This document shows positions 60,649 to 63,491 of a stretch of DNA of 64,000 nt, piece by piece. The notes under the pieces are model-generated. The model worked only from the letters and a program-made list of their open reading frames with translations, did no database searches and was not told the origin of the DNA. Within the stretch, counting starts at the first letter, position 1. Every line of letters begins with the position of its first letter. A program made the translations under genes and the position numbers. The stretch is from Escherichia coli (GTDB taxonomy: Bacteria > Pseudomonadota > Gammaproteobacteria > Enterobacterales > Enterobacteriaceae), in assembly GCF_003334305.1 (NCBI RefSeq), contig NZ_QOWS01000005.1; one strand, given 5' to 3'.

Positions 60649-61575
60649 GTGGCAGTCGCCATGGATAATGCAATTTTAGAAAACATCTTGCGGCAAGTGC
60701 GGCCGCTCATTGGTCAGGGTAAAGTCGCGGATTATATTCCGGCGCTGGCTACAGTAGACGGTTCCCGATTGGGCATTGCTATCTGTACCGTTGACGGACA
60801 GCTTTTTCAGGCCGGAGACGCGCAAGAACGTTTTTCCATTCAGTCTATTTCCAAAGTGCTGAGTCTCGTTGTCGCCATGCGTCATTACTCCGAAGAGGAA
60901 ATCTGGCAACGCGTCGGCAAAGATCCGTCTGGATCACCGTTCAATTCTTTAGTGCAACTGGAAATGGAGCAGGGTATTCCGCGTAATCCGTTTATTAATG
61001 CTGGTGCGCTGGTGGTTTGCGATATGTTGCAAGGGCGATTAAGCGCACCACGGCAACGTATGCTGGAAGTCGTGCGCGGCTTAAGCGGTGTGTCTGATAT
61101 TTCATACAATACGGTGGTAGCGCGTTCCGAATTTGAACATTCCGCGCGAAATGCGGCTATCGCCTGGCTGATGAAGTCGTTTGGCAATTTCCATCATGAT
61201 GTGACAACCGTTCTGCAAAACTACTTTCATTACTGCGCTCTGAAAATGAGCTGTGTAGAGCTGGCCCGGACGTTTGTCTTTCTGGCTAATCAGGGGAAAG
61301 CTATTCATATTGATGAACCTGTGGTGACGCCAATGCAGGCGCGGCAAATTAACGCGCTGATGGCGACCAGTGGTATGTACCAGAACGCGGGGGAGTTTGC
61401 CTGGCGGGTGGGGCTACCGGCGAAATCTGGCGTTGGTGGCGGTATTGTGGCGATTGTTCCGCATGAAATGGCCATCGCTGTCTGGAGTCCGGAACTGGAT
61501 GATGCAGGTAACTCGCTTGCGGGTATTGCCGTCCTTGAACAATTGACGAAACAGTTAGGGCGTTCGGTTTATTAA
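60649..61575 (+). CDS. glsB: Glutaminase 2 GlsB (YneH)
   Basis: 308 aa [19 protein letters not shown]. Confidence 0.9.
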
Positions 61576-61934
61576 TGCAGTCTCTCGATCCACTCTTCGC
61601 GCGTTTATCCCGTTCAAAATTTCGCTCTCGCTTTCGTCTGGGCATGAAAGAGCGTCAGTATTGCCTGGAGAAAGGCGCGCCAGTCATCGAACAACATGCG
61701 GCGGATTTTGTCGCTAAACGTCTTGCTCCGGCATTACCGGCTAATGACGGTAAGCAAACCCCCATGCGCGGGCATCCGGTGTTTATCGCTCAGCACGCCA
61801 CCGCGACCTGCTGTCGCGGTTGTCTGGCTAAGTGGCATAACATTCCGCAGGGTGTTTCGTTAAGCGAAGAACAACAACGTTATATCGTGGCGGTAATCTA
61901 TCACTGGCTGGTTGTACAGATGAATCAGCCATGA
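61575..61934 (+). CDS. yneG: Uncharacterised protein YneG
   Basis: 119 aa ORF; its ATG overlaps the glsB stop (TAATG). Confidence 0.8.
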   Translation: MQSLDPLFARLSRSKFRSRFRLGMKERQYCLEKGAPVIEQHAADFVAKRLAPALPANDGKQTPMRGHPVFIAQHATATCCRGCLAKWHNIPQGVSLSEEQQRYIVAVIYHWLVVQMNQP

Positions 61935-62072
61935 GAATTGCGGAAAACGATAAAATAGCATTCCCAGGGTACCTTTATTTGCCGCCGCTGTTAGCGAACA
62001 TGCTATCCTTTATGAGAATTTACTTATTACGTTGAGATAATTGCCACCCGCAATTGTATGGACAGATAATTA

Positions 62073-63491
62073 ATGCATGTACACCCCATTTCAACTTTCC
62101 GTTTGTTCCAGGAAGGTCATCTGCTACGTAATAGCATCGCTATTTTTGCGCTAACCACGCTGTTCTATTTTATTGGTGCAGAGTTACGGCTGGTTCACGA
62201 ACTTTCTCTTTTCTGGCCGCTGAATGGCGTAATGGCGGGGGTGTTTGCCCGCTATGTCTGGCTTAATCGACTGCATTACTATGCGATCAGTTATGTGGCG
62301 ATGCTGGTTTATGATGCCATAACCACCGAATGGGGACTGGTTTCACTGGTTATCAATTTCTCCAATATGATGTTTATTGTTACCGTCGCCTTACTGGTCG
62401 TGCGGGATAAGCGTCTGGGGAAAAATAAGTATGAGCCAGTAAGTGCCTTACGGCTATTTAATTACTGTCTCATTGCCGCATTATTATGCGCTATTGTCGG
62501 GGCGATTGGTTCGGTCAGTATTGATAGTCTGGATTTCTGGCCTTTGCTTGCGGACTGGTTCAGTGAGCAATTCTCAACGGGCGTTTTGATCGTGCCTTGT
62601 ATGCTGACGTTGGCTATTCCTGGAGTGCTGCCGCGCTTTAAAGCAGAACAGATGATGCCCGCCATCGCGCTTATTGTGTCGGTTATTGCCTCGGTAGTCA
62701 TTGGCGGAGCGGGGAGTCTGGCGTTCCCGCTGCCTGCATTAATCTGGTGTGCAGTGCGCTATACGCCGCAGGTAACATGTCTGTTGACCTTTGTCACCGG
62801 TGCGGTGGAAATCGTACTGGTGGCAAATTCGGTGATTGATATCTCGGTCGGTTCGCCGTTCTCCATTCCGGAAATGTTCTCCGCACGTCTCGGTATTGCC
62901 ACGATGGCGATATGCCCAATTATGGTTTCTTTTAGCGTGGCAGCGATCAATTCGCTAATGAAGCAAGTTGCGCTGCGAGCCGACTTTGATTTTCTGACTC
63001 AGGTTTACTCACGGTCCGGTCTTTATGAGGCGCTGAAAAGTCCATCGCTGAAACAGACACAACATCTGACGGTCATGCTGCTTGATATTGACTATTTCAA
63101 AAGCATTAACGATAACTATGGACATGAATGTGGCGATAAAGTGTTAAGCGTGTTTGCCCGGCATATTCAGAAGATTGTCGGTGATAAGGGGCTGGTGGCG
63201 CGCATGGGCGGCGAAGAATTTGCTGTTGCAGTGCCGTCGGTGAATCCTGTCGATGGTCTGCTAATGGCGGAAAAAATCCGTAAAGGCGTTGAACTGCAAC
63301 CATTCACCTGGCAACAAAAAACGCTTTATCTCACGGTAAGTATTGGCGTCGGTAGTGGTCGCGCATCGTACCGAACGCTGACCGATGATTTTAATAAATT
63401 GATGGTCGAAGCCGATACGTGTCTGTATCGCTCGAAGAAAGATGGGCGCAACCGTACCAGCACTATGCGTTACGGTGAGGAAGTTGTCTGA
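62073..63491 (+). CDS. dgcF: Membrane-anchored diguanylate cyclase DgcF (YneF)
   Basis: 472 aa ORF; hydrophobic N-terminal region and C-terminal GGDEF domain with RMGGEEF; the true start may be internal. Confidence 0.75.
   Translation: MHVHPISTFRLFQEGHLLRNSIAIFALTTLFYFIGAELRLVHELSLFWPLNGVMAGVFARYVWLNRLHYYAISYVAMLVYDAITTEWGLVSLVINFSNMMFIVTVALLVVRDKRLGKNKYEPVSALRLFNYCLIAALLCAIVGAIGSVSIDSLDFWPLLADWFSEQFSTGVLIVPCMLTLAIPGVLPRFKAEQMMPAIALIVSVIASVVIGGAGSLAFPLPALIWCAVRYTPQVTCLLTFVTGAVEIVLVANSVIDISVGSPFSIPEMFSARLGIATMAICPIMVSFSVAAINSLMKQVALRADFDFLTQVYSRSGLYEALKSPSLKQTQHLTVMLLDIDYFKSINDNYGHECGDKVLSVFARHIQKIVGDKGLVARMGGEEFAVAVPSVNPVDGLLMAEKIRKGVELQPFTWQQKTLYLTVSIGVGSGRASYRTLTDDFNKLMVEADTCLYRSKKDGRNRTSTMRYGEEVV

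Follow-up and report, generated by a model that had tools for sequence, protein, structure and literature searches.

The stretch of DNA analysed here, 64,000 nucleotides of Escherichia coli that we refer to as the window, almost certainly carries at positions 62073-63491 the intact and ancestral allele of dgcF (yneF), encoding an inner-membrane diguanylate cyclase, and the 315-aa K-12 product is with the same confidence the remnant of a deletion. The core of this finding was already published in 2014 (PMC4287979). Richter et al. described an extended yneF in EAEC O104:H4 and EHEC O157:H7, and reported that the K-12 gene has a 5' deletion and a misannotated start and is not expressed, while the full-size YneF has a hydrophobic N-terminal domain of about 300 aa, an intact A-site and no I-site (PMC4287979). 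What is added here, namely the frequency of the two alleles, the exact boundaries of the deletion and a MASE1-like assignment for the membrane domain, is incremental.

The gene is one open reading frame in the ORF listing, without interruption from its ATG to its stop, and a longer in-frame start is impossible because position 62073 is the first start codon past the upstream stop. The features on which the comparison with K-12 rests are as follows.

62073..63491, plus strand: dgcF (yneF), full-length coding sequence, 472 codons plus stop, ATG start (ORF listing)
61575..61934, plus strand: yneG (DUF4186), an ORF and the conserved neighbour 5' of dgcF, in the same place in K-12, M8 and MG1655
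62008..62505, no strand assigned: 498-bp segment missing from K-12, comprising 65 bp upstream of the gene, the ATG and codons 1-144 plus one base

Over the 1701 bp compared, the window DNA is identical (100%) to that of E. coli M8, in which PGAP gives dgcF the same ends and names the product 'sensor domain-containing diguanylate cyclase' (WP_000558044.1). The order sad-glsB-yneG-dgcF-uxaB is common to M8, K-12 and MG1655, with dgcF lying between yneG and uxaB.

Difference between the window and K-12 is one of sequence and not only of annotation. The gap in K-12 takes in 433 bp of dgcF coding sequence and the 65 bp that precede the ATG. Its boundaries were fixed by extending the match to a K-12 chromosome base by base from either flank; a MAFFT pairwise alignment of the window with K-12 misplaced the gap and gave a spurious stretch of low identity, and flank extension was used instead. 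The same extension found no shared bases, microhomology or repeats at the junction. The original prediction, which gave the K-12 protein a length of about 315 aa and read the window as a continuous frame of 472 codons, was right on both points: the MG1655 product (b1522, 1610907-1611854) is 315 aa long, and its coding sequence starts at an in-frame internal TTG that corresponds to Leu158 of the full protein. It had offered two explanations, that a long form with a membrane anchor really exists or that strains differ at the 5' end, and both turn out to be true, since K-12 lacks the 498 bp by a clean deletion with no frameshift and does not have the same 472-codon frame, and several genera conserve the long form, whose orthologs are functional in CFT073 and Shigella flexneri. 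In the part of dgcF that K-12 retains, E267 of the window is Q in K-12 (62871-62873) and R436 is L (63378-63380); the aligned 3' flank has eight nucleotide differences between the two.

The distribution of the two forms was followed in 5426 complete E. coli genomes by megablast, with window positions 61900-63600 (1701 bp) as the query. The dgcF locus is present in 5415 genomes, at 96-100% DNA identity to the window in thousands of them, and in 4189 the match extends over 80% of the query or more; the remaining locus matches, K-12 included, are mostly in two pieces that span 1203 bp of the record for the 1701 bp of the query. The 498-bp segment is kept in 4197 of the 5426 genomes (77%), drawn from all identity bands, and is unmatched in 1229, of which 1218 still have the flanks. 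A 40-mer across the K-12 junction was found in 1216 genomes (about 22%), in 1212 of them at an identity of at least 99%; the halves of this 40-bp query are too short to seed, so full-length alleles cannot match it, whereas an 80-bp junction query was unusable for counting, its halves being joined across the 498 bp in full-length genomes. Genomes with the segment and genomes with the junction together make 5413 of the 5415 that have the locus (4197 + 1216), and the polymorphism is therefore essentially one of two alleles. The carriers of the deletion include many laboratory derivatives of K-12, but also isolates from human, swine, chicken, crow and donkey and from river water, seawater and marine sediment. 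What was deleted in K-12 is thus missing from a naturally occurring allele, which has one junction and is not specific to K-12, contrary to the wording in Sarenko et al. 2017 (PMC5635695). Loss of dgcF as an adaptation in a commensal lineage is a matter of speculation.

Among the matches to the segment, five places lie on records of plasmid class, and one genome has three copies; these may be genuine plasmid copies, captures of the F-prime type or artefacts of assembly. A second and independent lesion of dgcF was seen in the mouse isolate LI60C3 (L007, NZ_CP136900.1, 2672-4062; corresponding to the window from about 62073-62865 onward), where the 5' 795 nt of the gene are kept and the 3' part, uxaB and further genes are lost, up to a truncated tam that lies next to hipBA. 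Two chimeric proteins (P0008 and P0009) join the DgcF N-domain to a HipA Pfam domain, and the LI60C3 lesion probably explains them.

Taken alone, the 315-aa product of MG1655 could suggest that nothing more than the choice of start codon separates the two proteins, K-12 having the same 472-codon frame as the window. That this should be an annotation difference only is so improbable as to be negligible, as it is refuted by the K-12 sequence: the 498 bp are absent from the DNA itself, the frame upstream of the remnant soon reaches a stop and has no ATG, the copy is a pseudogene to PGAP, which flags it 'incomplete; missing N-terminus', and the same segment goes unmatched between retained flanks in the more than one thousand genomes counted above. 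It might also be asked if the short K-12 form is the ancestral one, with the 5' 498 bp gained by insertion or recombination in the lineage of the window. A comparison of two alleles gives no direction by itself, and no support for such a gain was found, while the wider family speaks against it so strongly that we give it virtually no credence. A search with residues 1-300 returned orthologs of 472 aa in E. fergusonii, of 478 aa in Citrobacter amalonaticus and of 479-484 aa in Enterobacter and Lelliottia, with identities to the N-domain query of 88%, 84% and about 73%, respectively; they begin at the same Met, and each has a C-terminal GGDEF domain. Met1 is aligned in eight of eight orthologs, and few parts of the protein are as well conserved as residues 18-110. 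Beyond these, about 400 representatives span the 300-residue domain, and in 71 family representatives (21-67% identity) G35, R39, W48, P49, N51, G56, R60, D81 and N98 are near-invariant, every one of them within the part that K-12 lost. Within the species, the segment is kept by the great majority of genomes in all identity bands, and comparison with an E. coli allele of 96.5% identity gives a pN/pS of 0.13 for the whole gene; the value of 0.40 for codons 1-144 taken by themselves comes from only nine differences, by which within-species constraint in that part is poorly measured. Orthologs across genera, residues conserved in the family and pN/pS therefore together indicate that the long form is ancestral and constrained and that the K-12 form is a derived deletion.

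Granted that the long frame is ancestral, the position of its translation start has to be considered. The region before the ATG contains two promoter-like sites of relevance.

62012..62041, plus strand: promoter-like site, ATGAGA, 18-nt spacer, GATAAT with TG extension (consensus scan)
62041..62070, plus strand: promoter-like site, TTGCCA, 18-nt spacer, GATAAT (consensus scan, 10/12 matches)

Both lie inside the segment deleted from K-12. The upstream site is placed for a leader of roughly 25-30 nt. The downstream site ends 2 nt before the ATG (GATAAT at 62065-62070) and, if used, would start transcription inside the ORF, and it therefore cannot serve a start at 62073 with a normal leader. The scan gave five promoter-like sites against 3.2 expected, which is near chance, and such sites are pattern matches, not evidence of function. 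No Shine-Dalgarno sequence stands out before the ATG, where there is only a GGA about 10-12 nt upstream. The weakness of this sequence, and the -10-like element whose transcript would begin within the coding region, are what could be expected if translation began internally, for example at Met54 or later, and yielded a product shorter than 472 aa. We nevertheless regard an internal start as very improbable. Conservation between genera is high in residues 18-53, and the first Met is shared by the eight orthologs; the family-conserved G35, R39, W48, P49 and N51 all come before Met54; and the first helix (residues 17-37) is modelled as part of the helical bundle with pLDDT above 90. The ATG at 62073 is thus the preferred start, and the protein that follows from it can be divided as below.

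62073..62972, plus strand: integral-membrane sensor domain, residues 1-300, about ten helices, a divergent MASE1-like domain
62979..63455, plus strand: GGDEF domain, residues 303-461 (Pfam PF00990, E 3.3e-40; TIGR00254, E 4.7e-38)
63207..63221, plus strand: GGEEF active site (A-site), residues 379-383 (motif scan), in the context KIVGDKGLVARMGGEEF

By profile, A-site and fold DgcF is a GGDEF-domain diguanylate cyclase, whose activity is here a predicted one. The match to PF00990 covers model positions 1-161 of 161, and the TIGR00254 score is 130.5 bits (cutoff 37.4). In the AlphaFold2 model pLDDT exceeds 90 across the GGDEF domain, and Foldseek searches of the PDB match the model to PleD, DgcZ, WspR, SadC and DosC with E around 1e-10. 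The GGEEF motif is kept in all orthologs aligned and varies hardly at all in the family. Upstream of it, where an RxxD inhibitory site would normally lie, the site is absent and the residues read G-D-K-G.

Identification of the N-terminal domain was less direct. A Kyte-Doolittle scan finds hydrophobic segments all through residues 1-300, so that the original prediction of some 150 hydrophobic codons before the GGDEF domain was correct as to their character and too short as to their extent: the domain is about 300 residues long, and roughly 157 is the number of residues by which the protein exceeds the K-12 annotation. Pfam recognises only the GGDEF domain in DgcF, with no match to MASE1 (PF05231) even at E<=10, and likewise finds no MASE1 in the closest non-enterobacterial relative (P0133, 40% identical); NCBIfam has no match to residues 1-300. 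An exhaustive search with these residues nevertheless collected the family of about 400 representatives (clustered at 50%), aligned across the whole domain and mostly 440-500 aa in length, with a few fused to other outputs. PF05231 is matched individually by 39 of the 71 family representatives at E<=0.001 and by 55 of the 71 at E<=0.1, the best value being 4.2e-11; in one member the match, though weak, pairs residues 20-289 with model positions 5-297 of 299 and so takes in the full domain. When the DgcF family profile was aligned by hhalign with the first 340 residues of K-12 DgcE, the probability was 91.6% (E 8.3e-7, 216 collinear columns), against less than 1% for five unrelated membrane proteins used as controls; UhpB, taken as a single sequence, gave no match to the profile.

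With an alignment of the 71 sequences AlphaFold2 returned a model with pLDDT 92.6 and pTM 0.87, whereas with only eight close orthologs the pLDDT of the membrane domain was below 50. The model has about ten helices within residues 17-304, the last of which runs unbroken into the GGDEF domain as a connecting helix (about 265-304). Foldseek against the PDB surfaced matches to the GGDEF domain only and no solved counterpart of the membrane domain; against AFDB50 it listed generically named membrane cyclases and one 'putative YegE', which adds little on the MASE1 question. From the family profiles, and by transitive steps, we class the membrane domain of DgcF as a divergent MASE1-like sensor that is detectable only via its family. 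This modifies the statement in PMC4287979 that the domain resembles no other E. coli protein. A search of the literature available to us for a link between DgcF and MASE1 found none, and the PGAP name of the M8 protein hints that a sensor domain of some kind may already be known to domain databases. Two relatives of the membrane domain, P0184 (810 aa) and P0263 (676 aa), carry it on other outputs; in two of the 71 representatives HisKA, HATPase_c and receiver domains take the place of GGDEF, and one of these also has Hpt. With other outputs attached in this way, the N-domain is therefore a portable sensor module that is not tied to GGDEF.

The arrangement of these parts, a MASE1-like sensor of about 300 residues and ten helices, a connecting helix and a GGDEF domain with GGEEF, suggests how the enzyme might work. 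By what is seen in other GGDEF enzymes, DgcF would act as a membrane dimer, in which a signal at the level of the membrane, or a partner protein, acts on the MASE1-like domain and is passed via the connecting helices to position the two GGDEF domains. So paired, these would condense two GTP to c-di-GMP and, lacking the RxxD feedback site, would be free of allosteric inhibition by the product. UhpB and UhpC form a membrane partner signalling pair. It may be speculated, by analogy with DgcE and UhpB-UhpC, that DgcF too receives its signal through a membrane partner protein; DgcE is presented as a GTPase partner system in the title of PMC6510439. The single clean deletion seen in K-12 silenced the gene, as it took away the sequence next to the promoter and the ribosome-binding region together with the ATG and codons 1-144, which on the predicted model make up approximately the first four helices and the greater part of the fifth; the 315-aa 'protein' of K-12 is an annotation placed over the remnant. 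A broader reading, in which the natural deletion allele had a single origin and the loss of this cyclase was favoured in one commensal lineage, and in which the MASE1-like domain of DgcF receives its signal via a membrane partner, seems to us unlikely as a whole.

In published work, a lacZ fusion to the upstream region of full-length yneF gave weak and mainly RpoS-dependent expression (PMC4287979). In another study the protein was undetectable in K-12, and DgcF from strain 55989 was used in interaction assays (PMC5635695). A CFT073 strain deleted for yneF formed less biofilm on glycerol and adhered less to bladder cells, and the exogenous cyclase WspR restored both (PMC3484386). The dgcF of S. 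flexneri raises c-di-GMP, which its GG-to-AA active-site mutant does not, and its expression lowers acid survival, invasion and plaque size (PMC11327459). When four membrane cyclases were expressed ectopically, motility was inhibited by all but DgcF (PMC10127611), a result that would fit an inactive remnant if it was the K-12 allele that had been cloned. The dgcF of the K-12 reference is a dead remnant, and cloning from K-12 yields a truncated and unexpressed product; in work on c-di-GMP signalling in wild or pathogenic E. coli, DgcF has to be included as a further active cyclase. The allele count, with 22% deleted and 77% intact, rounds off this picture, as does the MASE1-like assignment, and neither opens a new question.

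Among known systems, DgcE (YegE), which carries MASE1 (PF05231), resembles DgcF in having a multi-helix membrane sensor of about 300 residues before a cytoplasmic output, and its residues 12-232 are collinear with the DgcF family profile. It differs in having LWFPT where the DgcF family has FWPxN, and in possessing PAS domains and a degenerate EAL domain, whereas the GGDEF domain of DgcF follows the sensor directly; from MASE1 proteins in general, E. coli DgcF differs in that it falls below Pfam detection. The K-12 dgcF (b1522) shares with the window a 3' part of 987 nt that is about 99% identical, as well as the same flanking genes, but its upstream region and start codon are gone together with codons 1-144, and PGAP calls it a pseudogene. 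The DgcF/YneF proteins of 55989, EHEC O157:H7, CFT073 and S. flexneri 2457T, on the other hand, are products of the same gene in the same arrangement, yneG-dgcF-uxaB, with 472 aa, the same hydrophobic N-domain of about 300 aa, GGEEF and no I-site, and between them and the gene described here there is nothing materially different.
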